Below, piece after piece: positions 26,425 to 45,990 of a DNA stretch of 64,000 nucleotides. The stretch is taken from assembly GCF_050870985.1 (NCBI RefSeq), contig NZ_CP194015.1, positions 1,941,407-2,005,406 of the forward strand, written 5' to 3'. The notes beneath the pieces are model-generated. The model ran no database searches and was not told where the DNA came from. It saw nothing but the letters and a program-made list of their open reading frames with translations. The translations under genes were made by a program, and so were the position numbers. This stretch comes from Amphritea sp. HPY. GTDB lineage: Bacteria > Pseudomonadota > Gammaproteobacteria > Pseudomonadales > Balneatricaceae. Position 1 is the first letter of the stretch. Each line of letters opens with the position of its first letter.

Positions 26425-26464
26425 GGATATAATGAAATAGGGGCTTTCAGAACGAAGGCCCCAT

Positions 26465-26485
26465 AAAGTAAGCAATAAGTAAGCA
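26465..26485. repeat. attL-like direct repeat of the island.
   Basis: Exact 21-mer shared with 45970-45990. Confidence 0.55.
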
Positions 26486-26743
26486 AATCAAATGCAAATT
26501 CAGGCAAAGATTGGACAAATATACTCTCTCTAACCTGCCAGCCATCTTTTCAATCTATCACCGATAGAGACCCCCACCCTCAAAAATTCACATCTCCGTA
26601 GCTCTGGTGCATCCCATCCACACATTTTTTTGGGATCTGAAAACTAACCGAGTCAGCCTTCATCCTCATAGATAATACCGATAGGATTATAGGAAGTTGA
26701 GTGGTCTGACAAGTTCAATATTAAGTAGGTCGAGCTCTAAGCT

Positions 26744-27151
26744 TCATTTCGACACAAAGTGGTAATACCACTTGCGTTCTTTATCCAATCCATCAAACTC
26801 GATTGAGTGTATTTCCCATCCAGCGGCCAAGAACTTCTGAACAGCCACTTCGCAATATTCATTTTCGTAGTCTATTGCAGGATCTACTCCTCCGGCGACG
26901 ATGGCTTGTGCATAAGCAGGGTGATCTAATGTAACACCTACAACCTGAAGAAACGCCCTATTTATTGTTAAGTCAAAATCCAATCGACACCTCATTAAAG
27001 CGTATCCCGGCGAGCCGCCTCCGCTTCTTGCTGCTTCTACGTTACGTGGAAAGGATACGGCGGAAATACTGATAACCACCATTAACGCAACAATTGATAT
27101 AATCAACAAAGACCATATTCTTATTTTTCTTGTGTACATAATGACCTCCAT
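26744..27151 (-). CDS. Hypothetical membrane-anchored protein (island cargo).
   Basis: 135-aa ORF with an N-terminal hydrophobic helix. No recognisable family. Confidence 0.35.
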   Translation of the reverse strand: MEVIMYTRKIRIWSLLIISIVALMVVISISAVSFPRNVEAARSGGGSPGYALMRCRLDFDLTINRAFLQVVGVTLDHPAYAQAIVAGGVDPAIDYENEYCEVAVQKFLAAGWEIHSIEFDGLDKERKWYYHFVSK

Positions 27152-27451
27152 AGAAAGCAGGAGTATTGAGTAAGTGCGTCATGTCATATAGTAGAACGCA
27201 CTGGTCAGTGTGAGCTCATCACCGCCTCGCCCACTACCAAAGTGTAGTAAAGAGATCAGCAAGACTTCGTTCAAGCCCCCCCCCATCAAAAACACATTAT
27301 CCGAATAGAACTAGACATCTCGTCCATACACCGGAGGGGAAAGTTAGAAACTCTGGCTTTTGCTTTGGTGCTCGAATACAACCTACCTAAATTAGATAGC
27401 AGAAACTTCAGGGACGATGCTCGCCAAGCAGGCACTAAGATAGCCCTACAC

Positions 27452-27733
27452 CTAATAACACGTAGTTGTGCAATTGTTATCACTATAACAGTATGTGTTA
27501 CAGATAATTCCGCCAGGGGTAGGGTTAATAGGCTGCAGTCCTTGTCTTGGTTGGGTTGGTGGCTGCCGTACCGCATCGTATGGATTTTGTAGCTCAGCAT
27601 AGTGATTCTCAATAAGTACTGGTTGTTGCACCAACATCAACTGCACGCTTATATTTGATGTTTGGGCTGCTACTGTCGAGAAACCCAAGAGACCTACAGT
27701 AAAGCACGCTGCTATAAAAAAGAATTTGATCAT
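27452..27733 (-). CDS. Small secreted Cys-rich protein of 93 aa.
   Basis: GGAGGG RBS 6 nt upstream of ATG 27733. Signal peptide MIKFFFIAACFTVGLLGFSTVAAQ. Q/P-rich linker. C-terminal IICNTYCYSDNNCTTTCY. Confidence 0.4.
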   Translation of the reverse strand: MIKFFFIAACFTVGLLGFSTVAAQTSNISVQLMLVQQPVLIENHYAELQNPYDAVRQPPTQPRQGLQPINPTPGGIICNTYCYSDNNCTTTCY

Positions 27734-28222
27734 GGAGAGTCCCTCCATTGCGGATTTTTTTATTATTTGTGTCTCTATTATTGATTGTAGTTTAAGGGCA
27801 CTGATGCATATATCGAAATGATAACCATGAGTCTCATTGACGACATTAATTTTGCGCTATTAACCGCTTGGGTTGACTCTTATTGACTAAGGTCTAGCGT
27901 CATACTTATGGTTGTAAAAGAGTGCCGTGAACTAATGCGCGGTACGTTATTCAACTCTGGCTTTTAAGTTTCTCTGCTTGAATTTCCTCTTTGTGTCATC
28001 AGCTGCCGTTGATGGACCTGGTCATATCGTTGGGTCTATGTGTGGCCGTAAGAGGCAGCAGTCGCCCAACAGCGTAATCCGCTGCAAGCTTCTAATAATC
28101 ATGAATATCTCGATTTCTACCGATACGTGAAGCACACCTCCAATTTCGTAGCTATATTTCAACGTAATATGTGTTCCCTTGTTGATTTCATGGACCTAAT
28201 TAACTAGCTGTAAAGGATATAT

Positions 28223-28672: not shown

Positions 28673-29125
28673 ACTCCATTAACAACAATATTTATAAATG
28701 TAGACTGGATATTTAGCTACGATCCAAAGCCGGATTTGTTAAGCAGATAATTATTCAGAGCCACACACTGACAACTTATGTGTCATTGGCTACCGAAGGT
28801 GGCGGTAAGCCAGCGTGAAGTCGCTTTGTGCCAACAGCGGTCACGGATAGTAACCCTAAAGATAAGCCGCTATCGACCCAAACCAGACCTATCGCGTACC
28901 AGCTTCACAGACTGCTCTTTGGTAGCTAATGACACATACCCGCCGCTCGCTGAAGTTCAATAACGGCTACAGTTGAGGCAAAGTGTTGGCTTTTATTGGA
29001 CTCTTGGATGGTGTGGGTTGATTGTCCTCTCATCCTAGTAGACACAGCAAAAAGCAGGGAATAGTCTATAGACTCCTCCCTGCTTAACTCACATCAAGGG
29101 CAGCTCACATAGCGATCTATACGTC

Positions 29126-30241
29126 CTAGTGACACGTATCCTTGACAATATTAACGCTGTCAGTGCCTTCAATTGGAGTCCCGTCCAGAAGTTCACCATT
29201 CACCGTGGCGGAGGTCGTATCACCGTCAAGAGCTGCGATATCCGACGTTAAGTAATGACAGACGAGGTCATCAATAGAATCGTCATTGATATCTTCGTAG
29301 CTGCAAAGGGAGTGTGGGTCTTTCTTACCAACCACCTTAACAGCCGTCTCAGCAAATCTGAGGGTCTCGGTATTGATGTCGAATACGTTGAACGTATCAG
29401 AGCCCAGAATCCCAATCGGCACCGTGCCGTTGGAGCAAAGATTGATGCTGTTGGGGAAGCTGTCCGGATGGATGTCGATGGCAACCGAAATACTTACAGA
29501 ACATAATTCCTGTATTTCTTCATCAGAAAGGGCACGGTCATATATGCGCACATCATCAATTATTCCTTGAAATGCGCCATTCCCATTCCCCAAATGATTT
29601 GAGTTTTTGTAATTCCCAATTCTGAGAGGTTCGGGGCCGGTATAGGCTATGACAGAACCAATATTGCTACTTTCCTCCAACACCCCGTTAACGTTAATCT
29701 TGAGATTCGTCCCATCATAGATGCCCACAGCACAGTGCCACTCACCGGGGAGATATTCTCCAGAAGAACGAACCACGAAATCCAAGCCATCCGAAGCCCG
29801 CTCCAATTTATTCCCGAAAAACTCATCAGTCCCAGTTATCCAAAATAGACCAAATGTATCCTCATTTCCCCCATTGTATGCGATTTTCCAAATAATAGGA
29901 CCCGGTGTATCTTCTGAGATATCATCAGGTCTTACCCAAGCTATCAATGTCCAAGAATCGACTAAATCAAATGGGCGGGGGGGATCGCCCGGATTAGGTA
30001 CCTCAATATAATCATCCACACTAAGTCCACCAAACATATAGGCACTATCAGGATTACCAAACCTATCTGCTGTCGAAGTAGCACCAGATACCGTACCGTG
30101 ATGCATGTTTCCACTTGCATCATCAGCGTTTCCATTAAATGGGTAATAAGCTACCAAACCACTAGTCAAATCAGCAAATGTTAAATTGGTAGTAAAAAAA
30201 ATCATAGCTAGAGCTGAAACAAAGATTGAAAATTTTTTCAT
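29126..30241 (-). CDS. Secreted LamG/concanavalin-A-like jelly-roll domain protein with a conserved C-terminal domain of about 110 aa.
   Basis: GAGGAGG RBS before ATG 30241. Signal peptide MKKFSIFVSALAMIFF. The motif LVAYYPFNGNADDASGN...DDYIEV is typical of LamG-like proteins. The C-terminal domain is shared with the 38458-39372 protein. Confidence 0.6.
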   Translation of the reverse strand: MKKFSIFVSALAMIFFTTNLTFADLTSGLVAYYPFNGNADDASGNMHHGTVSGATSTADRFGNPDSAYMFGGLSVDDYIEVPNPGDPPRPFDLVDSWTLIAWVRPDDISEDTPGPIIWKIAYNGGNEDTFGLFWITGTDEFFGNKLERASDGLDFVVRSSGEYLPGEWHCAVGIYDGTNLKINVNGVLEESSNIGSVIAYTGPEPLRIGNYKNSNHLGNGNGAFQGIIDDVRIYDRALSDEEIQELCSVSISVAIDIHPDSFPNSINLCSNGTVPIGILGSDTFNVFDINTETLRFAETAVKVVGKKDPHSLCSYEDINDDSIDDLVCHYLTSDIAALDGDTTSATVNGELLDGTPIEGTDSVNIVKDTCH

Positions 30242-31049
30242 GTTTGCCTCCTCACAAGGCGCTCGCGCATCCACCCAGAAAAAAGAAACGCAGTAGCAAA
30301 CTGTTGTCGAAAAGTTGTTACAAGAAAAAAAGCAAAATATTTGCCATAAAAACTATAAGGGTTATTTTTCAGCGCATTAGGTCATCCCAAGGGTCGGTGC
30401 GGTTTCCCGTAGTTGTCAGCAATACTTTACAGTGGCCCGGTGCTGATATTGCCGCCGCCAGCGAAGTGAAGCCCATTGGCCTAGTTGGACAGCAACAGGA
30501 ATCGCATCGCGGCGCACAGCACTAGAACGCCGTTTATGGGGGCTGTCTCGGCTGAGAATGCGTCGATAGCAGAAGTAACCGACGGATATAAAAAGAGAAT
30601 CGTTGAGAGAATGCTCTGTCATTAGGGACTTATGGGCTGGCCCCAGAGCCTGATTCAATGATTACGCCCCGTTGGGATGAAGCTCTAGCAGCGATCAATC
30701 AAACTCCTGCGGCAGGACTTGAGCGGTTGGGCAGCGGCTGTTAAATTTTTGATACAGCTAAACAGACCATTTGTGGCTTCGCAGGGCAGATCCCTACCGG
30801 GAGTCATTACTAGCAGCCTTGGGCTGTAGGTCTGCTTAATGCGTAACCTGCCGCTCGGCTTTAGCACACTGAATGACTGAAATTCGCCGATAGCCGAAGT
30901 ACAGACAGGTCTCGCTCGAAGGTCAGCTTTGGGTCGTTAGCGGAAGTTCAAACAGGCCAGCCAGAAAGTCAGCTGTGTGCCAACAGCGGACATAATTGCA
31001 CTACCGACTCAGCTTGAATTAACGACTCCTTTCGACCTATAGCGGACTC

Positions 31050-32966
31050 TCACGGCTCTATGGGAAATTCTTCCCGATCCCTACGTTGTTGCTCAGCTCG
31101 GGTAAGATTACCATCTCTGTCACTCTGGTTCGGCCTGCTACCACCTAAGAAATCACCAAGAATTCCAGCTGCAGCGGCAAGATCATGATTACCTTGTTCA
31201 CCTCCAAGAGAAAATACACGATCGGGTACAAACTTGTGGGCATTGGTTAGACCTGTAGTCAAAATATCTGGATGATTCTCGAATAGGTCAAAGATTCGGC
31301 TTACTATTACCTCGAACTTTCGCAGTTCCACTACACGGTCCTCGCCAAGAACTTGCGCCTGTTCCTTCTGTCCTGTAGCTATCAAGCTAAGCTTATCTCT
31401 TTCCCCTTTACCTTCGTTTAGGCGAGCTATTGCAAATTGCTCTGAGCGTTTTACTTCAATTTCTGCCTCGACTAAATTAGGCTGTTTATCCGCCGTGGCA
31501 CGTGCTCTTTCGGTTTTAATACGCTCATCCTGTGCTAACCGTTCTTGGTTATATGACTTGGCAAGTTGTTGCGCAAGCTGTTCTCGCTTTCGAGCTACCA
31601 AAAGTTCAGGTGGTAAGTCTGGTTCGAGCAATCGCACCTCTTTTATATCCACTCCTGCTTTTACGCCCTCAACTTTAATAGTTTCTTCTATATTTGCTTC
31701 TAGTTCTGCACGGCGCTCTATCACATCCAATACCTGTGTACGGCGGTGTATTATCCTTGTTTTCGGATTACCGGTTTCGTCTAATATCTCCTCTCCATAT
31801 TTATCTAACACTGGTACTGTATAGCTAATAAAACCACCAGCAACATTTCGGACGATCGACTGAACAGAGGGGCTCATAATTCGATTCTCGACTTCCTTAA
31901 GCCCACCAACCGAAGCAATCACAAACGGGGCAAGCCTGGGAGTTACCTGAACAAGTACACGTAGTTGTTGAGCTACAGTCCAACCCTCAATCTTGAGAAA
32001 AACTGCTTCATCCACTGCCTTGCTTGGCACCTTTACGTACTCTACATGTTCGCTCTGACTAATACGGCCTTGCTGATCAACGGTAAGGTCTATACGACGT
32101 CGACTGAAACCCCCTCTGTATTCCCATGTTTGAACACGAGTGTCTATTAAGGTGACATGGTAAGCAGAACGATTGATGTAATACTTTCCTGGATTAAGAG
32201 CCCGCTCCCAAATGCCAATACATCCAACAGGAACAAGTGGAACCTCTAACTCGACGCCAATAATCCCTTCTTTGCTGATAGGTGAGCAATCCCTTGGTCT
32301 GTCTGTCTTCAAATTTCCAAAATCGACTCTAGAATGAACATTAGATTTGATCACTCCAACAAAGCCTTTAGGTATTTCCGTCACGGCTTTAAATGTTACA
32401 TCCCAAAGATATTTGTTCAGTCGGTGTTTACCAGGAGTCAGTACTGATGTCTGAGGTCCCTTTTGCCCACCATTTTTTAAGAAGTATGCTGCATCATATA
32501 ACCTCTGACTTGTTTCTCCAGATATAAATGCATCAGCGAATGTCTGATCTGGGCGTAACGGTTGACCGTCACGAGCCATAAGAAACCCATACTTACCTGA
32601 TGGTATTTCGATAACATCCATCACTTTAATATCATACAAGATATTCAAAAAAGGTCTGAAATGAAATCCAGGAGGTAAAATTTCAGCCTGCGGTCCCTTT
32701 TCGCCATCTACTGCGATAATTGATCCATATTTGAGATTACCGCCAGTGTAAATCTTAAACATATGACCTGTTTCGTCGTCTTCTATAAACACAAAAGATG
32801 TCAAAATGCAGACAAAAATAATGACAATAGAGCCTCCATATAGAAAAACACTATCAAAAAAATACTTCTTTCTTTCATCCTTAATTGAGATGAGCTTAGG
32901 CGCAATTAACATGCAAGCCAAGGCAAAAACTATAATCGCAATTAGTTCCATTTTAATATCCTCCAA
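31050..32966 (-). CDS. Flotillin-like SPFH/Band-7 domain membrane protein.
   Basis: 638 aa. Two N-terminal TM helices, a central SPFH-like region, and a long E/R/Q-rich coiled-coil C-terminus. The architecture resembles YqiK/FloT. Confidence 0.5.
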   Translation of the reverse strand: MEDIKMELIAIIVFALACMLIAPKLISIKDERKKYFFDSVFLYGGSIVIIFVCILTSFVFIEDDETGHMFKIYTGGNLKYGSIIAVDGEKGPQAEILPPGFHFRPFLNILYDIKVMDVIEIPSGKYGFLMARDGQPLRPDQTFADAFISGETSQRLYDAAYFLKNGGQKGPQTSVLTPGKHRLNKYLWDVTFKAVTEIPKGFVGVIKSNVHSRVDFGNLKTDRPRDCSPISKEGIIGVELEVPLVPVGCIGIWERALNPGKYYINRSAYHVTLIDTRVQTWEYRGGFSRRRIDLTVDQQGRISQSEHVEYVKVPSKAVDEAVFLKIEGWTVAQQLRVLVQVTPRLAPFVIASVGGLKEVENRIMSPSVQSIVRNVAGGFISYTVPVLDKYGEEILDETGNPKTRIIHRRTQVLDVIERRAELEANIEETIKVEGVKAGVDIKEVRLLEPDLPPELLVARKREQLAQQLAKSYNQERLAQDERIKTERARATADKQPNLVEAEIEVKRSEQFAIARLNEGKGERDKLSLIATGQKEQAQVLGEDRVVELRKFEVIVSRIFDLFENHPDILTTGLTNAHKFVPDRVFSLGGEQGNHDLAAAAGILGDFLGGSRPNQSDRDGNLTRAEQQRRDREEFPIEP

Positions 32967-33324
32967 GTTTTCATTAACCCCTGAATGGCTTATTAATAAA
33001 TATGCGACACTAGAGGGTATGTTATAAAATATTATTCTTACTCTTAATCCAGGAGTTATGAATAAAATGAAAATTTATAATAGGTTGCGTCTTAATTCAG
33101 ACTGCCTTTAGGAAAATGGGATGAGCTCCCCCTCTAACAGTATCTATGTTTCGTCAACTGCCGTTCATTATCTTAGTGAGATCGTTGGACCTATGTGTGA
33201 AGATAGGGACCGCAGTCGGCACAAAGCGGGTCTCTGACAACTCAGTAATAACACTTTGTTACGCCTAGTGGTTTGGAGGTGGCGCCATCAAGGTGTCGGT
33301 TAAGCTACTTGTTAAGAGGGCCTT

Positions 33325-33843
33325 CTATCTTTTCCTGTAAAACCACTCTTCGACTTGTTCACGCAACGCTTCACGTATAGCTGGATTGCTAAGTTCAGGG
33401 TGTGTTTCTTCTCCTTGAAGGATGCTATGAGCTTGTCGAACGTATGAGTTCGCTTTGCCATGACGTCCCTTACCAGCGCTTATGTTGGCTAGTACCATTA
33501 ATGAGTTAACGACTGATGTATTTGTTGGACCACACGCTTTTTTGAAAATGCCCAGCGCACGATTAGCATAACCCTCAGCTTCCTCCCACCGTTCCTGAAA
33601 CAAAATAGCAATCGCCAAGCTTATTAGCACAGGTGCGGTGTTACTCTCATCCCAATGAGTCTCAGCTAACTTAAGTGCTTGTCTTAGAACAATCTCTGCT
33701 TCTACCATTTTTCCATTTACCATATAGTCAGCGGCTTCTTCTTCAAGCTTCGTGACTTTCCACAGCGGGTATATATTCCAAAATAGAATTACTATACCAA
33801 CAGCTATGGTACCTAGAACCAATTTCCACCAAATCATTTTCAT
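33325..33843 (-). CDS. TPR-repeat protein with an N-terminal TM anchor.
   Basis: 172 aa, TPR-like helical repeats. Confidence 0.45.
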   Translation of the reverse strand: MKMIWWKLVLGTIAVGIVILFWNIYPLWKVTKLEEEAADYMVNGKMVEAEIVLRQALKLAETHWDESNTAPVLISLAIAILFQERWEEAEGYANRALGIFKKACGPTNTSVVNSLMVLANISAGKGRHGKANSYVRQAHSILQGEETHPELSNPAIREALREQVEEWFYRKR

Positions 33844-33867
33844 CTCCTAACGCCACGCATGCGATTG

Positions 33868-34611
33868 TTAGGTTTTCGGTTCCGAAATCACAGTTGACTC
33901 TATGTTTGGCAGATCTTTTGCGAGCTGGACATATGCTAAAGACATACTTCCTTCCTCAATATCCGAGACCTTCCATTCCCCATTGTCCATAGTAAAAGAC
34001 CAAACTGTTGATACTTCTTTGCATCGTTTGCTCCCTTCAACAACCTTGCCTGTATTTCTATCTTGAAGGTAGTCTCTCATTATTGCTTTTATTAAAATAA
34101 CAACCATAGAGTCTTCATGCTCTTTCCCTTCATTCCGATGAACAAATAGAAGGGGCTTAATGCAGGTAATTATATTTACATCACAAATATTTTTTAGCCC
34201 TTCTTTTTTCCATCTATCTAGATGCAGGAATTGTTGGTTCTGCCAATACCAATCTGTCATCCAGTTAGTGACACCAGAAAGATCTTCATTTTCCCAACCT
34301 GAGTGAACTCGGAAGAAACAATCTATTGCTCTTTCTTGGACCTTTAACCATTCAAATTTAGAACTATGTACCGCCATAAATCGTAAATCTTTTCGAGCAC
34401 GACGCTCCGATAGCTTCTCACGCAAAAAAACATAAGTGATTAACGGGAAAAAAATAATTGTCAGAATCCCGAGAACCACCTGCCCCCAAAATGTTTCAAA
34501 AACAACACTAGCGATTTTACCACCAGGTCCTGCAAATGCCGGATCAGCAAAAACAAATGCAGTTGCCACAACCAACACAACCATTACTACTACCTTTTTA
34601 TTCATATCCAT
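33868..34611 (-). CDS. Membrane-anchored protein, possibly with a Tim44-like/NTF2-like C-terminal domain.
   Basis: 247 aa. N-terminal signal or TM segment. The weak C-terminal resemblance (..WSFTMDNGEWKVSDIE..) was judged by eye only. Confidence 0.3.
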   Translation of the reverse strand: MDMNKKVVVMVVLVVATAFVFADPAFAGPGGKIASVVFETFWGQVVLGILTIIFFPLITYVFLREKLSERRARKDLRFMAVHSSKFEWLKVQERAIDCFFRVHSGWENEDLSGVTNWMTDWYWQNQQFLHLDRWKKEGLKNICDVNIITCIKPLLFVHRNEGKEHEDSMVVILIKAIMRDYLQDRNTGKVVEGSKRCKEVSTVWSFTMDNGEWKVSDIEEGSMSLAYVQLAKDLPNIESTVISEPKT

Positions 34612-34728
34612 TTCTCCAATGTATACGTCTAACAGCTAAAGTGTGCTAAAACGGTATTTGTGTCGCTAGAGGGTAGTGCTTACAATGTTATAAGCAGAAC
34701 TAATAGCACTCTGCCAGAGAGTTAACTG

Positions 34729-35670
34729 ATGGAGTTTAGAGACCCTTATAAAGTAATGGATCTGAAAGCACTGAGGTGCTTCTGGGCCACTGCTAAACAC
34801 GGTAGCCTGACACAAGCGGGCGTTGAACTTGGCATCTCAGAAGCCGCTATCTCCCAACGGCTAAAATCTCTGGAGTCCTATCTGGATTCCAAGCTTTACG
34901 AAACAAGAGGAGGCAGGTTCAAGCTGACTGCCGCTGGACATCAGACATTCGATCTTGCCGTTCTCGTGTTTGATCAGTTACAGGCCTTCGAGAGCAGCAT
35001 TCATGATAACGATCAAATTGCCAATATCGTATTGGCATGCCCCGAATCAATTATTCGCTATGCTTTGCCTGACGTGATGCATCAATTTGCGCGAAATCAT
35101 CCCCTCTGCGAAGTAAAGATCCTAAGCCGTACGCCAAAAGACACTATTGAATTGGTTAAATGCAACGAAGCGGATTTCGGAATCATCCCCGATCGAATAC
35201 TTCCAAAAGGTATTAGTTTTTTGCCATGGCGAACCTATGCTGCTTACCTGATCATGCCAATCAATCACCCGGTAGCGTGTGGTAACCAGTCAAATTTTCA
35301 GGATATTGTTAATGAATTAAAGCGCAAGAAATATCGTTTTATCGCTAATGAATTAGACGAACATCAAAACCAAAAAATAGCCAAAGGCATGCAAGAAGCA
35401 GGACTGGATTATGAGGTCAGTCTGGAAGTCGGTTCAATCGATACAGTAAAACTGTATGTAGCAAGGGGACACGGAATCGCAATCGTTTCCGGGCTCTGCC
35501 TCACAGAGATTGATAAGCATTCGATATCTGCAATCAAAATTCCAAACGGCTACTGCAGTGATACGCTCTATGGCGTGATATTGCGGGACAATAAATGCGT
35601 CTCTAGACTGGTAAAAACCTTATTAGAAGCATTGGGTATGATGCCAATAGATGAAATTTGCAGTCGCTGA
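34729..35670 (+). CDS. LysR-family transcriptional regulator (island-encoded).
   Basis: HTH LKALRCFWATAKHGSLTQAGVELGISEAAISQRLKSLE. 313 aa. Confidence 0.85.
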   Translation: MEFRDPYKVMDLKALRCFWATAKHGSLTQAGVELGISEAAISQRLKSLESYLDSKLYETRGGRFKLTAAGHQTFDLAVLVFDQLQAFESSIHDNDQIANIVLACPESIIRYALPDVMHQFARNHPLCEVKILSRTPKDTIELVKCNEADFGIIPDRILPKGISFLPWRTYAAYLIMPINHPVACGNQSNFQDIVNELKRKKYRFIANELDEHQNQKIAKGMQEAGLDYEVSLEVGSIDTVKLYVARGHGIAIVSGLCLTEIDKHSISAIKIPNGYCSDTLYGVILRDNKCVSRLVKTLLEALGMMPIDEICSR

Positions 35671-35764
35671 TACGCCCGGATAGATTTTAGTACCACCTGC
35701 TATCGAACTGACCATTGATCCATAGCTGCTCCGGTTCTGTTTGGTCGCTTACTGACACAAAGAA

Positions 35765-37237: not shown

Positions 37238-37608
37238 CTACTCTGTGATCGCTAGGTCCAGTGTTCAGCCAATAGCGCTGACTGATTGAGTTAGTGTAGA
37301 CCTGTGACGCACAATCTTCTAAGGGCTCAAAAGCCGGATATTTCCAGTATCAACCGGAAGTGATACTGGGGAGGACTCAGCGGAAGGGTATGCATACCTG
37401 GCTCCAAGATCCGCTTTGGGTCGTAAGCGGAAGTTCAAACAAGCCAGCCAGAAAGTCCGCTGTGTGCCAAGAGCGGACATGGCGCAGTACGACAGGATTA
37501 GACTCTTATCGACCCAAAGGAGACCTCCGAACCAAGCCTACTTTCAACCCGGGGCAGGCAGTGTTCCCTTCAGGCTATGGAGTTACCTTTCTCGAACTTA
37601 AATACGCG

Positions 37609-38169
37609 TTACTGAACACCAACCGGTGCCGCGCATGCTATTGGTAATACTAAGGTACATGGGAAGCGATCCATACGGTCGTACGGAGCGATGGACAATC
37701 CAGTTAACGCAGACTCGTTTGAGTATAAGTCACACGAAAGGAAATCCATGGTCGATTGTGCTGACGTGCTAGGCTCGCTCAGGACTACAACGCGGGTCTC
37801 GAACGCTTGAAATAAATTGTCCGATCGAATGATTAATTCGACATGATCCGGTTGAATCCATGCCCGTTCGGTTACTACACTTGAAATGGCGGGCGTCCGA
37901 AGCGCATCTAATGCTGTAGCCGCTCGGGCTAAGGGACCGTATTCGCCGCACCATAAATTCGCTGCGGACGGTCCGAAAACGGTAACCCCTTCTAAGTTGT
38001 ACCGTACGCGCCCGGTGGTGCGGTGAGTTGTTATTCCGACGACCCTATATTCCGTACCAATGGTATCGTTGCCGCGCTGACTCGGAGGGGCTGCATGCGC
38101 ACAGGGCGGGAGGATCAATGGTAGGCACAGAGCAATACATACTACGACTTTCTGCTGGTAAAGTGACAT
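37609..38169 (-). CDS. Secreted hypothetical protein.
   Basis: 186 aa. Signal peptide MSLYQQKVVVCIALCLPLILPPCAHA. No family recognised. Confidence 0.4.
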   Translation of the reverse strand: MSLYQQKVVVCIALCLPLILPPCAHAAPPSQRGNDTIGTEYRVVGITTHRTTGRVRYNLEGVTVFGPSAANLWCGEYGPLARAATALDALRTPAISSVVTERAWIQPDHVELIIRSDNLFQAFETRVVVLSEPSTSAQSTMDFLSCDLYSNESALTGLSIAPYDRMDRFPCTLVLPIACAAPVGVQ

Positions 38170-38457
38170 GTGAAAGCCCCTAAACTTAAAATAGTTGTGA
38201 ATTAAATCCTTGGTAGTGAGACACGCATAACTTACATCGCTCAGTTGTTACGCTGAACTTGTACTTGTCATTATAGTTAGAGTTGAAGCACTGATGTTTC
38301 TATTAACTAAAACTGCCACTATTAATACCCTTTCTATACCAGGTCGCCTGCTGGCGGTTAATTTCTATCAAATCACCACCTTCTTGTTTTGACAGCCCGG
38401 CCTCTTGAACTTTACTTACTAGTACACGTCGAACTGTCACATACAATAGGTATCTGT

Positions 38458-39372
38458 ATGAAAAGCCGCCTGCTCATAGCCACCTTACTTTTTTTGGGTG
38501 CAGCAAATGTATTCAGTGCGCCAACAACGAGTATCCTCGATTTCGAAGTCCTGCGGCACGATGATGCCAATATAAGCGTTCACGGGCCAGAGTATGTCGA
38601 GGACGGTTTTCGGCTGAAAGCGCAACACTCCGAACCTGGAAATCCACTTCGACTCAATACGCTAGGCACACTTCAGCCTGGATTTCCGGGATCAACCGCA
38701 CTGTATCAAGGCGTAGTCTTGGGAGAAATCATACTCACTGAGGTTGACGGTAAGCCCTTCGATCTGCTTTCGATTCAGCTCGCTGAACTACCGGGTCTCG
38801 ATACGTCGGGGCTGCCAATCAATAGCGGGCCTTTCGATGTTACCTTCTTTGGACAGCAAGTTGACGGTTCGTTAGTTACGAAGACTTTCATCGTCGACGG
38901 GTTCCTAACGCTAAACACCTACTCATTTTCTGGATTCACAGACTTGCTGTCAGTCAACTGGTTTCAGGGTGGCGGTGACATACCGACTCACCAGTTCGAT
39001 AACATCACTGTCGCTGTGACCCCTTTAACAGTAGATATTGATATAAAACCTGGCAGCGACCCGAACTGCTTTAATACCAATGGCCATGGTGTGATTCCTG
39101 TGGCCATTCTCGGTAATGATAATTTTGATGTGCGTAATATCGATCAAAGCAGCCTGTCTTTTTCCGGGCAGGAGGTTCGGATGAGAGGGAATAAAGGTCC
39201 ATTATGTGGGGAGGAAGATTCTAACAGCGACGGATTCTTCGATCTGGTCTGCCATTTCGAAGACGACTCCACGAACTGGTCTCCGGGCAGCTTTGGCAAT
39301 GCAACACTCACCGGAGTGATGCTCGATGGTACCGAGTTCGAGGGCACCGATTCGATCTGCATTGTTCTGTAG
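38458..39372 (+). CDS. Secreted protein carrying the same C-terminal ~110-aa domain as the LamG protein.
   Basis: Start moved to MKSRLLIATLLFLGAANVFSA, which is a signal peptide. The C-terminus DIDIKPGSDPNCFNTNGHGVIPVAILGNDNFDV...LVCHF...LDGTEFEGTDSICIV aligns with AIDIHPDSFPNSINLCSNGTVPIGILGSDTFNV...LVCHY...LDGTPIEGTDSVNIV. Confidence 0.5.
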   Translation: MKSRLLIATLLFLGAANVFSAPTTSILDFEVLRHDDANISVHGPEYVEDGFRLKAQHSEPGNPLRLNTLGTLQPGFPGSTALYQGVVLGEIILTEVDGKPFDLLSIQLAELPGLDTSGLPINSGPFDVTFFGQQVDGSLVTKTFIVDGFLTLNTYSFSGFTDLLSVNWFQGGGDIPTHQFDNITVAVTPLTVDIDIKPGSDPNCFNTNGHGVIPVAILGNDNFDVRNIDQSSLSFSGQEVRMRGNKGPLCGEEDSNSDGFFDLVCHFEDDSTNWSPGSFGNATLTGVMLDGTEFEGTDSICIVL

Positions 39373-39584
39373 CCAATCCTGAATCATAAAGTCATTGATT
39401 GAGACTAGTCCTCAACGGTGGTTAATTATTCTTGTCGAGGGTCTCCTAAGTGCCGAAAGCATACTTAACTATGACAGCTGCTCAAAGCCAAACTAGCTAT
39501 GAATAAGAAACTAAAACAAAAGATGCCTCAAAGATAGGGAATCGTCTCAAGTTCAGCTAATAACAGACTAAATAGCTGGTTTTT

Positions 39585-40181
39585 TTATTCTGTTGGTAGG
39601 CCAATCGATAAGGGAGCAGAAAAGCCACCATTTGGTACGCCAGTTATCACTGGATCGTTTGGCATCGCTTCGACAGCTGGACCGCCAAAGTTACCGCATG
39701 ACCCATTGGGAGCTAGGGAGTAGAAAGAACCGTTGACCTCGACTGGATTAATTGGAATATAAAATAAGTCTGTGACTTCCCCATTTACAATCGCAGGGGG
39801 GTATTGAAAGAGCTGTCGTGGTGTCGCATCACTTTGTCGGAACGATTCATACCAGGACGTAGAAAGTCTCACATAGCGTGGTATATCAGAACAGTCGGAT
39901 GTCATGTAAAGAAGATCTTTACTGGAAAAAGTACCTAAAGGTGTGATCTCAAATAAATACCCTGTTGAGCTCATGGCGAGTACGATTCCTTCTTCACTAA
40001 CTTCGCTTATGAGCTCTCGAACATCCACAACCACTGCTACAGCTTTTCCTGAGGAGTTAATTAACGCTGCGGGTGATAGAGTCTCCTGCTTTTTATTTGC
40101 GTGAGATGGGGGCTCACTCAATGCGAGGGATGAAGCTATGAATGCAGCGAAGGAAATCAAACCTAACTTAATTTTATTCAT
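39585..40181 (-). CDS. Secreted hypothetical protein.
   Basis: 198 aa, signal peptide MNKIKLGLISFAAFIASSLALS. Confidence 0.4.
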   Translation of the reverse strand: MNKIKLGLISFAAFIASSLALSEPPSHANKKQETLSPAALINSSGKAVAVVVDVRELISEVSEEGIVLAMSSTGYLFEITPLGTFSSKDLLYMTSDCSDIPRYVRLSTSWYESFRQSDATPRQLFQYPPAIVNGEVTDLFYIPINPVEVNGSFYSLAPNGSCGNFGGPAVEAMPNDPVITGVPNGGFSAPLSIGLPTE

Positions 40182-41074
40182 TTCGATGACTCCTTATCAC
40201 GAGGAGTTGATACTGAGTTCGATATACTAATTAGCCTAGTACATATGTAGTTGATCAGCGTGCTATCCACAAAAGACAAGCCCCCTTGTAGTGGTCAAGT
40301 TCATGATGGCACTAAAGCCCTACAGGAAGCAGCGGATTCTGCATCTCTGAAGCTGGACCATCTGGATCGGGTGACTGTGCAGGGGTAAAACAGGGGACCG
40401 AGCTCCCTCACTCTGCCAGCCTCTGGGCAAAACTGGTTGTGGGGATGGTTACGCCCGCAAACTGCAGACTGCCGCATTGCGATTGGAAGTTGCACTCGAT
40501 GTTCTGCATTAGAAATAAAAGCCACCGCTGAGATCCGCTTTGTGCCTTTTGCTGAAGCTTTGCGCAGCAAGCCAATAAGACCGCTCTGTGCCGTTAGCTG
40601 AAGTCCAAGCCGCCTTAGTGACATGTCCGTTTTGTGTCGCTAGCTGCCGTCCAGGGGCTGTTCAGGCCCTTAGAAATGGCTATTACTATGAGTGTCTAGT
40701 CAGGCTTGATGTAACGCCCACAGTTTTCATTACATTACTTAATAGCCTAATATAATATACTTTTTCAATATCTATCAATAGTATGCGTATCAACACGCTA
40801 CATTATATTAGCTGGCTCTAATATAGAAGCAATTCATGAATGTCAGTAGCCAAATTCCAACGAAAATAGATCTGTATAACGCCATTGCATAAGACTAATG
40901 GCTCATTAAATAGGTCCACCTTTACCCACACGCACACCCTCGTTGAAAAACATTGAGCATACTTATCAGCCAAATAAGGTTGTATAAAAGCTCATCAATA
41001 CTCGATTTCACAGACCGAATTCTTCATTTTATTCTCCAGCTTCCCCTTTTTGAAACCCTACCCATCTACCTTCC

Positions 41075-41182
41075 GCATGGTTACTGGGCTGTAGAGAATT
41101 TTGAAACTCTACTTCAAACTACTTGGTAGAGTTTTCTATATCGCTAGAGAGGGCATGGTTACTTGCATGTAGAGAGGTAGAG
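41075..41182. repeat. Iteron-like direct and inverted repeats at the 3' end of the Prim-Pol gene.
   Basis: GCATGGTTACTNGNNTGTAGAGA occurs twice, at 41075-41098 and 41153-41176. There are six (G)TAGAG or CTCTAC copies and a GTAGAGAATTTTGAAACTCTAC hairpin. Confidence 0.4.
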
Positions 41183-43248
41183 CTTTGATCAGAGGGATTG
41201 GGAAGATAACGTGCAAAAGCGTCTTCGAACATGGCTAATTCATAGCCATTTTTGTTCACGGTATCAATCTTTATCTGGCGAGGCTTAATCCCATAATGTT
41301 TGAGTAACCTTGCCAATGAGTTCGTAGTCAACTGTTTGCCATGATTCCATTCAGCCCAAGGACGATCCTCTAAACAGACTAACTCTCGAACTAAATCCAT
41401 TGAGTGAATCCGGCTCGATTGTTGTCCCGCAAATATCTTTTGGATATCTTGTAATAGCTGTGGCCCAATACTATCTTCATCATCCTTAACTCTCTCCAGT
41501 GCCATCATTGCCTCCCTGGCTCGAATGGGCCATTCACCTCCTAGGCAATCAGCAATGGCGAGTATTGGAAGCCAATTATCTTTGGCTCTATCGCTATTAA
41601 CTTCAGGAATCTGAGGCTCTGCAGTTTTCAAATTCTCAAAATGATCTTGAGCCCACCGAAGACACTGGCGTCGCAAGTTCTTGTTCTGTTCGAACAAGTC
41701 CAGAGGTAACCGGTCAACACTTTCACTCTGTAACTTCCGGCGCAACAATATCATAATCGACCGATCGCGAATGGTATCTGGAGGAGACTTTATCATAGCG
41801 ATAGCCATTGCTGACCATGTACTAAATCGCTTAGGCATTAGATGCTTACCATCCCCTACAGTCCTAACTACAAATGCAGTACTCCGTGTATGCCCAGAAT
41901 TAATTATTCCGCGTAATTCTTCATTACCCTTCATAAAAGTATCTCCCTCATCAATTAATAAGGTCGAATGCCATTGATCGATCGCACGAAAAATAGCTGA
42001 TGGAGTGATATTGGATGCTATGAGTGATTTGTTAACTAAGGCCCCCAATACTTCTAAGGTAGTTGTCTTACCACAACGCTTTTCAGGAGAAGATAGACAC
42101 ACTTTCGGAAAGATTCTGAAAGCATTTAAGCAGTAAGTCCCCAGTGTCCAAATAGTTAACGCTTCAGCCGCACCTGGTGGGAGTAGCGTGTAACTTTTAA
42201 AGTTGTTAAGAATAGATTCCGCAATTATCTGACCGTCTACTGAATCATGCCAAGGCTCTATGCCATCACTGAACTCGGCACTGTCTTCCTTAGCCATATC
42301 ATCAACTTTTGATTCCGACTTCGGTACTGATCTAGGCTGTAGCATGCCAGCGGAAAAACCACTATTGATTGTTCGATCCGCTTCATCAGTGTGTAAACCA
42401 CACAAACAGCCTGCATTCATTAACATCCCCCTGGCTGTTTCTTCTTTTAATTCTCCACTCCCTACAAGCTGACCAGCGGAAAATGCTGCACGATTAAGCA
42501 TATCGTTCCTGCAGCCCTCTAACGCCTTAGCAACGCTTTCACATCCACGTTCAAGAGCAGCTAAAGCGTAAGAGCTTCCATTACCTATAACCTGCTGAGA
42601 GGGCTCTGAGGCTGCCTGTTCATGTGAGGGTTCCTTTTTCACAATCATATTCAGTAACCATTCTGGAGGTTGAGGCAGAGGAGTATTGAACAAATCTGTA
42701 AGAAATTCGTACCGATTTCCGTTTGAATGAATGGATGGAGGAGCGACAATGTAACCACCATCACCCCTTACATCAAAGCAACTTTTAACATTACAACGAG
42801 TTCGAATTGGTACGTCATCAGGAATAACAAAGAATAGGTGTAGCCCTTTCCCTGTTTGCACGACAGGTCCTGCAGGAAGCTCTCCTCCGTTGTCCGAAAG
42901 CAACTTTCCCCAGACTTCTAAATTATCAACATCAACGACAAAAAAACCATTGATCTTTCCTGTACATAAACCAATGTTGTAATCATGTCCGTTCCACATC
43001 TGTTTAACTAATTCAGGATCCTTTTCAGCATCTTTAAATCCATGCTTCGTTGCAGGTTGCTTGCCCTTAGGTTTCAGAGGAAAAACAGAATATCCCTGCT
43101 CAGCGTATTGGACCGCAGCTTCCGAAAGAGATGTACAAGATTCTGAACTCGAACTCTCTGGTTCGGAGGAGTGCAACACACTATCTTTGGTCTGCTGATC
43201 AAGGAGGTTACTGTCTTGTGTGATTATGTTCTTTTCCATTGTCATCAT
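41119..43248 (-). CDS. Bifunctional DNA primase/polymerase (Prim-Pol) fused to a P-loop NTPase. Island replication protein of the P4-alpha/D5 class.
   Basis: 709 aa. The N-terminal Prim-Pol signature is YSVFPLKPKGKQPATKHGFKDA...NIGLCTGKINGFFVVDVDN. The Walker A motif is SPEKRCGKTTTL. Confidence 0.75.
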   Translation of the reverse strand: MMTMEKNIITQDSNLLDQQTKDSVLHSSEPESSSSESCTSLSEAAVQYAEQGYSVFPLKPKGKQPATKHGFKDAEKDPELVKQMWNGHDYNIGLCTGKINGFFVVDVDNLEVWGKLLSDNGGELPAGPVVQTGKGLHLFFVIPDDVPIRTRCNVKSCFDVRGDGGYIVAPPSIHSNGNRYEFLTDLFNTPLPQPPEWLLNMIVKKEPSHEQAASEPSQQVIGNGSSYALAALERGCESVAKALEGCRNDMLNRAAFSAGQLVGSGELKEETARGMLMNAGCLCGLHTDEADRTINSGFSAGMLQPRSVPKSESKVDDMAKEDSAEFSDGIEPWHDSVDGQIIAESILNNFKSYTLLPPGAAEALTIWTLGTYCLNAFRIFPKVCLSSPEKRCGKTTTLEVLGALVNKSLIASNITPSAIFRAIDQWHSTLLIDEGDTFMKGNEELRGIINSGHTRSTAFVVRTVGDGKHLMPKRFSTWSAMAIAMIKSPPDTIRDRSIMILLRRKLQSESVDRLPLDLFEQNKNLRRQCLRWAQDHFENLKTAEPQIPEVNSDRAKDNWLPILAIADCLGGEWPIRAREAMMALERVKDDEDSIGPQLLQDIQKIFAGQQSSRIHSMDLVRELVCLEDRPWAEWNHGKQLTTNSLARLLKHYGIKPRQIKIDTVNKNGYELAMFEDAFARYLPNPSDQSSTSLHASNHALSSDIENSTK

Positions 43249-43487
43249 GCAGCTCCTTTACCCGAATCATATAGTTCCCCATCACGTGCAGTATCTACTC
43301 GGCTCTGCTCGATAAACGCCCGATAATCAGCCATCCGATACCGAACTGAAGATCCAATTTTTATGAATGGAATGCCTTGTTTGAGATAGCGATCATTGCG
43401 TAGCCGAGACAGAGAAAAGCCTGTCAGCTCCGCGATTTGATGTTCATCTAGTAAAACGTCAGTTTCGTTGTGTATGTTGTTATTCAT
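43245..43487 (-). CDS. AlpA-family phage transcriptional regulator/excisionase.
   Basis: GGAGG RBS before ATG 43487. The HTH LDEHQIAELTGFSLSRLRNDRYLKQGIPFIKIGSSVRYRMAD is typical of AlpA/Xis. The stop overlaps the Prim-Pol start. Confidence 0.7.
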   Translation of the reverse strand: MNNNIHNETDVLLDEHQIAELTGFSLSRLRNDRYLKQGIPFIKIGSSVRYRMADYRAFIEQSRVDTARDGELYDSGKGAA

Positions 43488-43637
43488 GTATGCCTCCATC
43501 CACATAGGTTTGTATTGAATGATGGTCTACAAAGTCAGCGGCTAATAGATAGCAGGGATTGGTAGGTTAGGGTAAAAAGGGATGGGTAGGTTAACTGAGG
43601 GTTACTGCTGGCGGGGCTTTCAAGGATTGGTAGGTTT

Positions 43638-44582
43638 TTAATCACTTTTAGGGCTACCACCTCTTTTTTTCCAATTTATCATCGTGGCTATGCGCTTAAT
43701 TGCTTCGCCTGAGAGTTTACTCGGGTGGTCTTTAAGCCACTTTTCTATGGCCTGTTTAGGTGACTTCTTGATTACTTTTTGGTCCTGAAAATATTCCCAA
43801 GCTTCAATGGCTAAATCTAACTCTTGGCTATACCTCGCGTTTTCAGGATTCAAGTATTCCGGTTTGTGGTTTATTTCTGGAAGACTTGCCTGCTCTACAA
43901 ACCTTTTTAGTTCCTCGTCATAGTCAAACCTTTTCGATTCTAGCCACTTCAAGAATGATTTTGGCTGGTTATGAGGCTCATTAAGTTCACCTACCTCAAT
44001 GCTTCTGGATGCAACGTGAAAACGCTCCATATATTGATCTGGCACGCTAAATCCGTAACCAAACTCGTCCTCCATATTTTCCAATTTTATAGTGTAAGGA
44101 TTTAAGCCTAATGAAAGACAAATCCCCTCCTCAACAGACCAGTACGACATGCGGCTCCAAAGCTCATATTTTGCTCTATTCACTGGAATATTCCACCATT
44201 CCCGATAGGGCTTGAACTCTTCTAGTTCTTGTAATGTTTTTTCTCGTAAAGCGATGCAACGCTCAATAAGCTCCTTCCTCACCAGTGCGCTTAATTCCTC
44301 CTGAAAGCTGTCTTCATTAGACTCTTGCCCTTCGATGTCTTCTGCACTGCCATTTTTATCTACCAATCTGTAAGAAAGGATCCCGTTATTTAAGAATTCG
44401 GCCCGAAGCAGGATATCTCGAAGCGCTCGGTCAGATAACAGGTCAAGGTTCTCTAAAGTGCCTAGTCTTCGCCATAGGAAACGGTATTGCTCATTACATT
44501 CATCCAAGTCTTCTGGAATTTTTGGTCCTGGCTCTTCATTCATCTGTATGCTGCCTCGGGCCCCCTTCAGTAGAGATATCAA
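43638..44582 (-). CDS. Hypothetical island protein (orphan).
   Basis: 314 aa, acidic/charged, no recognisable motifs. Sits between the integrase and alpA. Confidence 0.4.
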   Translation of the reverse strand: MISLLKGARGSIQMNEEPGPKIPEDLDECNEQYRFLWRRLGTLENLDLLSDRALRDILLRAEFLNNGILSYRLVDKNGSAEDIEGQESNEDSFQEELSALVRKELIERCIALREKTLQELEEFKPYREWWNIPVNRAKYELWSRMSYWSVEEGICLSLGLNPYTIKLENMEDEFGYGFSVPDQYMERFHVASRSIEVGELNEPHNQPKSFLKWLESKRFDYDEELKRFVEQASLPEINHKPEYLNPENARYSQELDLAIEAWEYFQDQKVIKKSPKQAIEKWLKDHPSKLSGEAIKRIATMINWKKRGGSPKSD

Positions 44583-44638
44583 ATCAGGCCATGATAATGA
44601 CGACTATTCGGAACATATCCTCAACTTGCTAAAACCAG

Positions 44639-45946
44639 TCAGTGTTTATTAATTGGCACCACGTTGCTGACCTTGTCTTCATTCTCCAAAATATTTTCAA
44701 GCGTCGTAGCCCACTGGTCCAAGTAGCGCCTTTTCTGCTTAATATAGCCACTATTGATGTAAACCTCGGTCACATCACCAAAGCTATGATTGAGTACTGC
44801 TTTTATATCCTCCCGTCGCACTTCTTCATTACTTAACATTGTAGCTACAGTGCGTCGAAGGTCATGGGGCGTGAATCCTTTATCTTGATCAATGCCTAAC
44901 TTATCGAAGTCTCTGCGAAGTAGATTTGTGACTGTTTGGGGCGCTATATGGTTGTTAGGATTACGCGGAGCAGGGACCAAATATGGGGATCCAGCAGACA
45001 ATTCCTTCATCTTCTCCAAAGTACAGATCGCTAACGATGATAATGGAACAATATTGGATCCTTTCCTATTTTTTACGCTCGCCCTGGGAATTGTTAAGGT
45101 TTTCTGATCCCAGTCGATCCAGTCCCATCGTGCTGTAACAATTTCACTACGTCTTTGGGCAGTCACTAATAACAGTTTGAGAGCCAGTTGAACTAGAGGC
45201 GGTATGCTTGTCTTTTCTAAACCAAACCAAAAACATCGTATCTCCGCTTCCGAAAGTGTCCGCTCTACGGGGATATACTGATAATCGGTAGATACATCTG
45301 TACACGGATTCTGGCCAATATACTCTTCGTCTAATGCAAACCGCATGAGGGCTTTCAGTCTCTGCAGTACGTTGTTTGCTACTTTGTCGCCATGCTTGTT
45401 AGAGATGCCACGAATGAATGTCCTAACATCTACTCGTTGAATGTCAGTGACCAATGCATCTGTCCAATAGGGGCGTATGTGCTTTTCGATAGTCCATCGG
45501 TATTGTTTCAGGGTGTCTTTAGATAGGTGTTTGCCGCCTTTACCCTTTTCTGCAGCCATTTGCCGCTTTTCATGATGATTGTAGTACTCTTCAATTAGTC
45601 TTCTCATAGATGGTTTACGAGCCATCTGTAGCTTTTGGTGAGCAGCTTCTGCTTTGGCTTGTTGTCTTTCTTGTATGGGATCGCTTTTGTTAGCCAGTAT
45701 GCTTCGTGCAATACCTCGTGCCTTTTCCACAGCTAACACATCAACTTTGCCAATCCTGGAAAATTTCATTCTAGGATTACCTTCTGGTCGATACCCTACG
45801 ACATAGGACTTTTTACCACTGGGGTAGAGCCGCACGCCGAACCCAGCTAACTTGCCATCCCAGATATATTGGACGCTCGGGCCTTCTGGATCATATGTTG
45901 CGGACTCAATTAATGCCTTGGTGAGATTATCTTTCTTCTTGGACAT
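44639..45946 (-). CDS. int: Tyrosine-type site-specific integrase (P4-like, with an N-terminal arm-binding DUF4102-type domain).
   Basis: 435 aa. N-terminal YIWDGKLAGFGVRLYPSGKKSYVVGYR. C-terminal catalytic region ..HDLRRT..., ..LNHSFGDVTEVYI... Confidence 0.9.
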   Translation of the reverse strand: MSKKKDNLTKALIESATYDPEGPSVQYIWDGKLAGFGVRLYPSGKKSYVVGYRPEGNPRMKFSRIGKVDVLAVEKARGIARSILANKSDPIQERQQAKAEAAHQKLQMARKPSMRRLIEEYYNHHEKRQMAAEKGKGGKHLSKDTLKQYRWTIEKHIRPYWTDALVTDIQRVDVRTFIRGISNKHGDKVANNVLQRLKALMRFALDEEYIGQNPCTDVSTDYQYIPVERTLSEAEIRCFWFGLEKTSIPPLVQLALKLLLVTAQRRSEIVTARWDWIDWDQKTLTIPRASVKNRKGSNIVPLSSLAICTLEKMKELSAGSPYLVPAPRNPNNHIAPQTVTNLLRRDFDKLGIDQDKGFTPHDLRRTVATMLSNEEVRREDIKAVLNHSFGDVTEVYINSGYIKQKRRYLDQWATTLENILENEDKVSNVVPINKH

Positions 45947-45969
45947 ACAGCTACCAATTGATCAACCGA

Positions 45970-45990
45970 AAAGTAAGCAATAAGTAAGCA
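45970..45990. repeat. attR-like direct repeat of the island, followed by extra AAGTAAGCA-like motifs.
   Basis: Exact 21-mer shared with 26465-26485. AAGTAAGCA-like motifs recur at 46006 and about 46065. Confidence 0.55.

Follow-up and report, generated by a model that had tools for sequence, protein, structure and literature searches.

Several genomic islands, such as SGI1 in trmE, GIsul2 in guaA and the dusA-associated elements, integrate at the 3' end of a protein-coding gene and reconstitute it. The present analysis concerns a stretch of 64,000 nucleotides of Amphritea sp. HPY (contig NZ_CP194015.1, positions 1,941,407 to 2,005,406 of the forward strand), hereafter called the window, and an integrative island within it which is likely inserted in the last codons of the ETF-QO gene. 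As is generally known of the elements named above, the proposed core consists of the last codons of a housekeeping gene, the reading frame is restored and the integrase gene lies beside the attachment (att) site, but the target is ETF-QO, the integrase belongs to another clade and no mobilisation genes were recognised. Both the integrase clade and its ETF-QO target are new and so far undescribed, and no paper linking ETF-QO with an att site was found in the literature searched.

Gram-negative phage-inducible chromosomal islands (PICIs, e.g. EcCICFT073; Fillol-Salom 2018, PMC6092414; PMC10085698) are alike in their terminal integrase followed by an AlpA-type regulator, putative in the island, and a primase/replicase, in a specific non-tRNA att site, in the absence of lysis and tail genes and in a variable accessory cargo. 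In contrast to PICIs, the island possesses no terS, capsid-morphogenesis or redirecting-packaging gene and so has only three of the five core functions, is larger (19.7 kb versus typically about 10-15 kb) and has int separated from alpA by an extra variable open reading frame (ORF). By SatelliteFinder criteria it would be a 'Type C' PICI only (int, AlpA, primase), a type for which satellites, defective elements or other mobile elements are possible (PMC10085698). The PICI/satellite label proposed in an earlier note on this DNA, made from the sequence alone, is unproven: integrase and Prim-Pol replicase are clear, the AlpA-like protein is a sub-threshold match and no packaging or capsid module was found in any island ORF with Pfam and PHROG.

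P4-like satellites (PMC8628076) share with the island a P4-type arm-binding integrase and an alpA-like gene followed by a large replication protein, and one of its relatives, locus L084, encodes a P4-alpha-like Zn-ribbon/Toprim/DUF5906 primase. Unlike them, the island has no psu, sid, delta or epsilon homologues in Pfam or PHROG, its replicase is of the Prim-Pol/DUF3631 type and its target is the 3' end of a protein gene, not a tRNA gene. The tmRNA-associated intY-alpA islands and VPI-1 (Zhao et al. 2025, PMC12595487) are alike in combining a tyrosine integrase with AlpA, in their direct repeats, in the lack of recognisable transfer genes and in a diverse cargo mostly without known function. 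However, intY-alpA islands are located downstream of tmRNA, with alpA placed at their far end, and most of them carry defence systems (PMC12595487), whereas this island encodes a replicase and no defence system was found in its cargo. The VEIMEs (PMC9618062) and PICMIs (PMC10803314) have in common with it a marine gammaproteobacterial host, an integrase, an AlpA-type regulator, a primase and no capsid genes, but were defined from virions or helper-phage experiments and are small, whereas the island is known from its sequence, is large and has an envelope-protein cargo. Apart from its target and clade, it is an ordinary integrase/AlpA/primase island with an odd exported-protein cargo.

Probable attachment site at the 3' end of the ETF-QO gene

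The features of the two ends of the island are the following.

24775..26424, plus strand: ETF-QO gene, the integration target (Pfam Fer4_ETF_QO and ETFQO_UQ-bd)
26410..26424, plus strand: attL core TACCCTAATATGTAA, codons Y-P-N-M-stop
26440..26462, plus strand: hairpin with a 9-bp stem after the ETF-QO stop, between the core and the P' arm, read from the sequence
26465..26485, plus strand: putative P' arm, a pair of arm-type sites (AAGTAAGCA x2) in an 11-nt register, equal to the left 21-bp repeat
45970..46108, plus strand: putative P arm, with the right 21-bp repeat (45970-90) and further AAGTAAGC(A) sites
46100..46124, plus strand: attR core TTTACATA-CTACCCGAA-TATGTAAA, enclosing the displaced ETF-QO 3' end TACCCGAATATGTAA (46109-23)
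46215-36: terminator on the distal side of attR, after GGCTAGA units

The last 15 bp of the ETF-QO gene are the left core copy and the reading frame is kept through it, the protein ending in ...NYPNM*. Core matches were found at only two places in the window, 26410-24 (TACCCTAATATGTAA) and 46109-23 (TACCCGAATATGTAA), the latter 118 nt to the right of the right 21-bp repeat, and the core-to-core length of the island is 19,699 bp (between 26410 and 46123). At attR, 8-nt inverted half-sites flank a 9-nt spacer, an arrangement which is the usual form of a tyrosine-recombinase core.

Relatives with integrases 46-59% identical to that of the island were present in metagenome and genome contigs, and their loci were compared. 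The distances between core and arm sites in the three complete elements are given below.

Window: core to arm 41 nt on the ETF-QO side and 118 nt on the integrase side; core to core 19,699 bp
L084: core to arm 41 nt on the ETF-QO side and 118 nt on the integrase side; core to core 10,133 bp
L136: core to arm 41 nt on the ETF-QO side and 120 nt on the integrase side; core to core 9,342 bp

In L084, whose integrase and ETF-QO are 56% and 74% identical to those of the window, an identical 21-mer precedes int by 12 nt, and a copy matching it at 18/21 positions is found at a distance of 10 kb; the far end of the element is the ETF-QO 3' end, of which a second copy (TATCCGAACATGTAA) stands 118 nt beyond the int-proximal 21-mer. 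L136 (integrase 47% and ETF-QO 65% identical, GC 0.66) follows the same plan, and in the partial loci L137, L138, L139 and L106 the integrase-side core is at 120 nt. Members of the clade, among them four independent relatives with integrases 46-56% identical, occupy the same ETF-QO position in hosts of 50-66% GC. Because the relatives duplicate the end of ETF-QO at fixed distances from the arm pairs, the att site was reassigned to the ETF-QO 3' end, and recombination is likely to take place in the last about 15 bp of the coding sequence. As a separate observation, the ETF-QO stop of L136 is lost at the core (19113-19190; CGA for TGA/TAA) and the ORF extends by some 14 codons to end within the arm-site pair, so that the C-terminus of the protein is altered by integration.

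The island is a true insertion, since the ETF-QO genes of contig L140 and of A. pacifica (L001) run into their own terminators without it. Other Amphritea ETF-QO genes are 87-90% identical to that of the window. L140 has a 90% identical ETF-QO gene and, upstream of it, genes in synteny with the window. There the stop codon precedes the gene's own terminator and, at a distance of 240 nt, a pair of radical-SAM genes that match window positions 53730-55380 at 83% and 79% identity; nucleotide homology with the window breaks off exactly at 26424. An empty site in a related genome, as the earlier note had foreseen, is thereby present in this congener. The terminator of the A. pacifica gene is followed by GGCTAGA-type repetitive extragenic palindrome (REP)-like units resembling those at 46134-46200 of the window, which come directly after the displaced ETF-QO end. 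In these two genomes, ETF-QO is followed by no such hairpin and no 21-mer. A genome scan with ETF-QO gave 80 further loci of other species, none of which (0/80) had the 21-mer motif or an integrase related to that of the island; these loci share little synteny downstream and provide no nucleotide-level empty site.

In A. pacifica (L001, 11640-11695), the ETF-QO 3' end also takes part in an extended terminator palindrome (CTACCCCAACATGTAAAAA...TTTTTTACATATTAGGGTAG), of which it forms the outer stem, and, therefore, the target of the integrase clade would be part of a conserved structured region. Amphritea sp. HPY has, besides, a second ETF-QO paralogue (P0238), 75% identical, whose 3' end could be a secondary att site.

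In the earlier note, the island was delimited at 26465 and 45990 by identical 21-bp repeats and the insertion was placed in the intergenic region after the ETF-QO hairpin. The repeats are indeed exact: the 21-mer AAAGTAAGCAATAAGTAAGCA has exactly two copies in the window (26465-26485 and 45970-45990), no other copy was found there at up to 3 mismatches (0 expected from shuffles), and the integrase gene does adjoin the right one, its ORF starting 23 nt away. A pair of repeats so exact, unique and placed at the flanks of the island, with the integrase next to one of them, could be taken as the att identity segments, in which case the motifs further right would be host-side or leftover sequences. 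This explanation is hardly credible, however, given that the ETF-QO 3'-end duplication brackets the 21-mers with spacings of 41 and 118-120 nt in all three complete elements, that the 118-nt stretch which would then be outside the island is positionally conserved among elements of unrelated hosts, and that hairpin and 21-mer are missing from the island-free L140 and A. pacifica, as is the motif from all 80 ETF-QO loci. Moreover, in L223, with an integrase 39% identical, a similar motif pair lies upstream of int and no ETF-QO core stands at the equivalent distance, as expected for arm-type sites read by a conserved N-terminal domain.

We conclude from this geometry that the 21-mers are most plausibly paired arm-type sites, 41 nt and 118 nt from the core and read by the N-terminal Arm-DNA-binding domain of the integrase, and not crossover repeats. 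The ends of the island would accordingly be 26410-24 and 46109-23, within the last 15 bp of ETF-QO, and the hairpin at 26440-62, which lacks a T-run and was not called by a consensus terminator scan, would belong to the island. The extra arm-type motifs that the earlier note had seen beyond the right repeat do exist, with exact AAGTAAGC(A) copies at 46003-11 and 46079-86 and an inverted 7/8 copy at 46038-45; everything right of 45990 up to the core is nevertheless best regarded as the island's own P arm, so that these motifs would be inside it. Since int starts only 23 nt from the 21-mer, the P arm presumably also contains the int promoter. A tandem or composite make-up of the island was dismissed, since neither core nor arm pair is copied internally.

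The integrase is thus predicted to recombine the island core with the ETF-QO end TAYCCNAAYATGTRA (Y-P-N-M-stop). Integration would re-form the ETF-QO frame by synonymous sequence, placing the island hairpin after the stop codon, and would move the gene's native 3' end, together with its terminator, 19.7 kb downstream. Excision junctions are expected within TACCCNAATATGTAA, the predicted attP junction being ...AATCAACTTTACATACTACCC[G/T]AATATGTAAGGATATAATGAAATAGGGGC... and the predicted attB junction ...GGCGGGCCGAATTACCC[T/G]AATATGTAAAAGAGCAGTGGCTAGACC.... The last codons of ETF-QO, together with the arm/core geometry, would represent a precise and conserved integration hotspot, with which annotators could find and delimit the small mobile elements of this clade in Proteobacteria of marine and other habitats. 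The case also indicates that the most conspicuous end repeats can be arm-type sites, not the recombination site, and that mistaking one for the other shifts the boundaries of an island by about 200 bp and changes the target gene that is called.

Mobility genes, related elements and mode of transfer

The mobility part of the island comprises the following features, completed by the corresponding ORFs of its relatives.

44639..45946, minus strand: P4-type tyrosine integrase, 435 aa, intact, with the three-domain architecture in Pfam and 100% identity to an Amphritea sp. HPY protein
43638..44582, minus strand: ORF X, 301-314 aa, in the variable slot between int and alpA
43553..43636, plus strand: 16-nt direct repeats in three copies (CAGGGATTGGTAGGTT), located in the alpA-replicase operon's promoter region
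43245..43505, minus strand: AlpA/excisionase-like small helix-turn-helix (HTH) protein, sub-threshold matches
41119..43248, minus strand: replicase, 709 aa, Prim-Pol N-terminal and DUF3631 C-terminal domains, Walker-A-like GKT motif
40630..41190: AT-rich non-coding stretch with 14-23-nt direct and inverted repeats around the replicase 3' end
int-alpA slot ORFs of relatives: L084 4368-5297; L081 11237-12085; L136 11320-12048

Both the P4-type integrase and the Prim-Pol replication gene of the earlier note were recovered by Pfam: Arm-DNA-bind_3 (5.5e-8), Phage_int_M (7e-10) and Phage_integrase (6.4e-19), all above the cut-offs, for the former, Prim-Pol (2.9e-38) and DUF3631 (2.1e-44) for the latter, which is also matched by PHROG DNA primase/polymerase families and has no full-length relative in the phage collection. 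The catalytic residues R265, K292, H361, R364, H387 and Y396 of the integrase are invariant in an alignment of 14 sequences of the clade. Because these residues are intact and the cores and arm pairs agree at 14/15 and 21/21 positions, the element looks capable of excision.

The gene called alpA is conserved in position and sequence in the relatives, where its homologues are 56% (L084) and 34-36% (L136 and L138) identical. Its resemblance to excisionase/AlpA-type HTH families is weak and sub-threshold, with 1.4e-5 for PHROG 66 ('excisionase and transcriptional regulator'), 0.011, short of the cut-off, for Pfam HTH_17 and no Phage_AlpA match. The iteron-like repeats also hold, as three 16-nt copies at 43553-43636, which are candidate operator or iteron sites, and as 14-23-nt repeats at 41048-41186 that span the 3' end of the replicase gene within the candidate replication origin at 40630-41190.

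The gene order of the clade is int, variable ORF, alpA-like HTH gene and replicase. The slot between int and alpA holds in each member a non-homologous ORF of 240-315 aa, even by profile search. ORF X of the window had no match in Pfam, PHROG, NCBIfam or PADLOC and belongs to a large uncharacterised family (1,144 representatives at E<=1e-3); its AlphaFold2 model is confident and all-helical (pLDDT 88.4), and no fold in PDB or BFVD matches it significantly. The replicase likewise differs from element to element, being Prim-Pol/DUF3631 in the window, Zn-ribbon/Toprim/DUF5906 in L084, PriCT_2 with D5_N/DUF5906 in L136 and AAA_25 in L138, and the replicase type is interchangeable within the clade. 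The integrase is less than 30% identical to every integrase of the phage collection. A metagenome scan with a 19-mer returned 51 loci, nearly all of them chance or tandem-repeat matches, and only L104 and L106 adjoin integrases of the clade.

As regards transfer, the island ORFs gave no relaxase, coupling protein or type IV secretion domain in Pfam, NCBIfam and PHROG, and no terminase/terS, capsid, tail, lysis or other phage structural match in Pfam and PHROG; an oriT is not recognisable from sequence. With no tRNA, tmRNA or Rfam family in the 64-kb window, the statement of the earlier note that structural phage genes and a tRNA target are lacking proved right. In the proposed cycle, the AlpA-like protein would turn on excision and the Prim-Pol/DUF3631 protein would replicate the circle from the repeats near its own gene. 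Since the island is devoid of packaging, capsid, relaxase and secretion genes, its transfer would require a helper, most likely a phage (satellite-like or by transduction) because the relative L136 encodes a major capsid protein. On this basis, the clade would be satellite-like. We consider this reading as a whole, an island with an ETF-QO core, arm-type 21-mers and helper-mediated transfer, to be likely.

Several points weigh against it and are gathered here. The cores are 14/15 identical, one base being different, and the mismatch positions of the three complete elements leave no shared mismatch-free stretch of at least 6 nt, for which reason the exact crossover point is not fixable and some change after integration must be assumed. 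Arm binding is deduced from site geometry; consensus promoter scanning gave no call in either att arm, and in particular no sigma-70-like one in the P arm. The nearest island-free genome, L140, is only 90% identical in ETF-QO, and the window holds 27.3 kb more than it (the 19.7-kb island plus 46124-53700). Neither an excised circle nor an empty attB of the same strain was seen. L081, with an integrase 59% identical, has the arm sites and no ETF-QO core. The relatives, at 9-10 kb, are only about half as large as the island. No match (terS, capsid or other structural) ties the window's copy to a phage, and 2.9 million IMG/VR contigs, queried with the 21-mer, integrase, integrase clade alignment and replicase, yielded no member of the clade, the best integrase there being 31% identical and the replicase search giving one distant DUF3631 match.

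Regarding L081, this type of locus represents either a different target or a rearranged remnant. L081, L082, L083 and L104 (TARA and other marine contigs) have the same 21-mer, a third motif at the spacing of the window and a transposase nearby. Like L223, L081 suggests that other cores exist.

Two more specific modes of movement were weighed. The first is that of a true phage satellite (PICI-, VEIME- or PICMI-like), induced by a helper and packaged in its capsids, which is possible, though we would not put it at even chances. It is in agreement with the int/alpA-like/primase-replicase order, that of Gram-negative PICIs and of 'Type C', and with clade member L136, which has a major head protein gene (PHROG 617, 3.8e-28) and a D5-type primase-helicase; furthermore, capsid-less marine satellites are common (PMC9618062; PMC10803314) and jumbo phages can mobilise int-alpA islands that are devoid of transfer genes (PMC12595487). 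Conversely, no terS, capsid-morphogenesis, cos/pac-related or phage-interference gene is present in the island, and the double size and the failure to find the 21-mer or the clade integrase in IMG/VR speak against it as well, as does a cargo that resembles ordinary envelope proteins.

The second, which appears unlikely, is that of an integrative mobilisable element moved by conjugation, or of a resident island that has lost its mobility. Replicases of the Prim-Pol/DUF3631 kind are characteristic of integrative conjugative elements of actinobacteria (PMC3218068), and the large non-phage cargo with its own REP-like repeats suggests long chromosomal residence; however, the conjugation genes named above are lacking from every scanned ORF and the intact integrase, cores (14/15) and arm pairs (21/21) are at odds with old decay.

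Cargo of the island and region downstream of ETF-QO

The cargo covers 14 kb (26.7-40.2 kb), unique to this copy, and is composed of the following features, with the repeats that accompany them.

26744-27151, minus strand: 135-aa membrane-anchored ORF (translation, hydrophobic N-terminus)
27452-27748, minus strand: 98-aa Cys-rich secreted peptide (translation, hydrophobic N-terminus)
28223-28672, plus strand: 149-aa lipoprotein, C-terminus matching PHROG 1353 (function not known)
29126..30274, minus strand: secreted LamG/concanavalin-like protein (Pfam Laminin_G_3, 6e-24; signal-peptide-like N-terminus)
31050-32966, minus strand: membrane SPFH/Band-7 (flotillin-like) protein (Pfam)
33325-33843, minus strand: TPR protein (Pfam)
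33868-34611, minus strand: Tim44-like protein (Pfam)
34729-35670, plus strand: LysR regulator (Pfam)
35765-37237, minus strand: membrane-anchored M20 peptidase (Pfam; NCBIfam NF006113, 9e-162)
37609..40181: three orphan secreted proteins of 186 aa (minus), 327 aa (plus) and 198 aa (minus), with signal-peptide-like N-termini
28777..40660: island-restricted REP-like intergenic repeats, palindrome CCGCTGTGTGCCAACAGCGG in 100-160-nt units
28777-28938, 30892-30993, 33208-33234, 37379-37540, 40530-40600: REP-like repeat units

The description of this cargo as almost entirely secreted or membrane proteins with a LysR regulator is confirmed, 11 of the 12 cargo proteins having a strongly hydrophobic N-terminal segment, which is absent from LysR and from the four mobility proteins. 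The cargo is an accessory, compact set of exported proteins that comes with its own regulator. The three orphan secreted proteins matched nothing in Pfam, PHROG, NCBIfam or PADLOC, and PADLOC detected no defence system in the cargo, only weak TPR matches. The SPFH family is widespread, the best match outside being 68% identical; the homologue in L141 has no TPR or Tim44-like neighbours and its context is uninformative.

A bolder proposal would make the island an enlarged satellite in which the 11 exported/membrane proteins and LysR form an envelope-remodelling module that excludes phages or competitors, ETF-QO being a private, phage-free docking site across Proteobacteria. We regard it as very improbable; if true, such a module would be a type of satellite cargo unlike the known cytoplasmic defence systems.

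The GC content of the island is 0.443, compared with 0.495 and 0.510 in the conserved flanks. Six copies of the REP-like palindrome were found in the cargo region and no exact copy in the 44 kb of the window outside the island; because the palindrome is confined in this way, it suggests that the cargo earlier resided in another chromosomal background. Integron-like cassettes were considered as an explanation of the intergenic repeats and rejected, given the absence of IntI, the mixed gene orientation and the REP-type palindromes. The 107-aa ORF at 40301-40624 is probably an artefact of these repeats.

Some further details of the cargo were noted. The LamG protein (29126-30274) and the 327-aa orphan (38389-39372) have in common a C-terminal domain of about 100 aa (DIxPxSxPN...GTDSxxIV) that has been assigned to no family. 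The repeat at 28777-28938 has 22-nt terminal inverted repeats and the appearance of a miniature inverted-repeat transposable element (MITE). In L084, the sole sizeable cargo gene (9839-11443, minus strand) encodes a 534-aa secreted protein with a signal-peptide-like N-terminus and no family match, which echoes the exported-protein cargo of the window island.

Beyond the island itself, the region downstream of ETF-QO is a variable hotspot, and it varies in this family in general. The segment 46124-53700, absent from L140, contains genes for a CHASE8-HAMP-GGDEF protein (49682-50959), a YfiR-like protein (50937-51494) and a TonB-dependent receptor (51513-53510). Within it, positions 46134-46200 and 49569-49635 are 67-nt inverted repeats, 97% complementary and built of GGCTAGA-type REP-like units. 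They bracket a module (46200-49569, GC 0.36-0.43) coding for an OmdA/YdeI protein (46359-46934), a 195-aa ORF (47013-47600) and a Peptidase_C14 caspase-like protein (47628-49097). The latter, outside the island, matches the PADLOC 'caspase' model at 1.6e-9, and this REP-bracketed module beside the island may be a small defence-type cassette.

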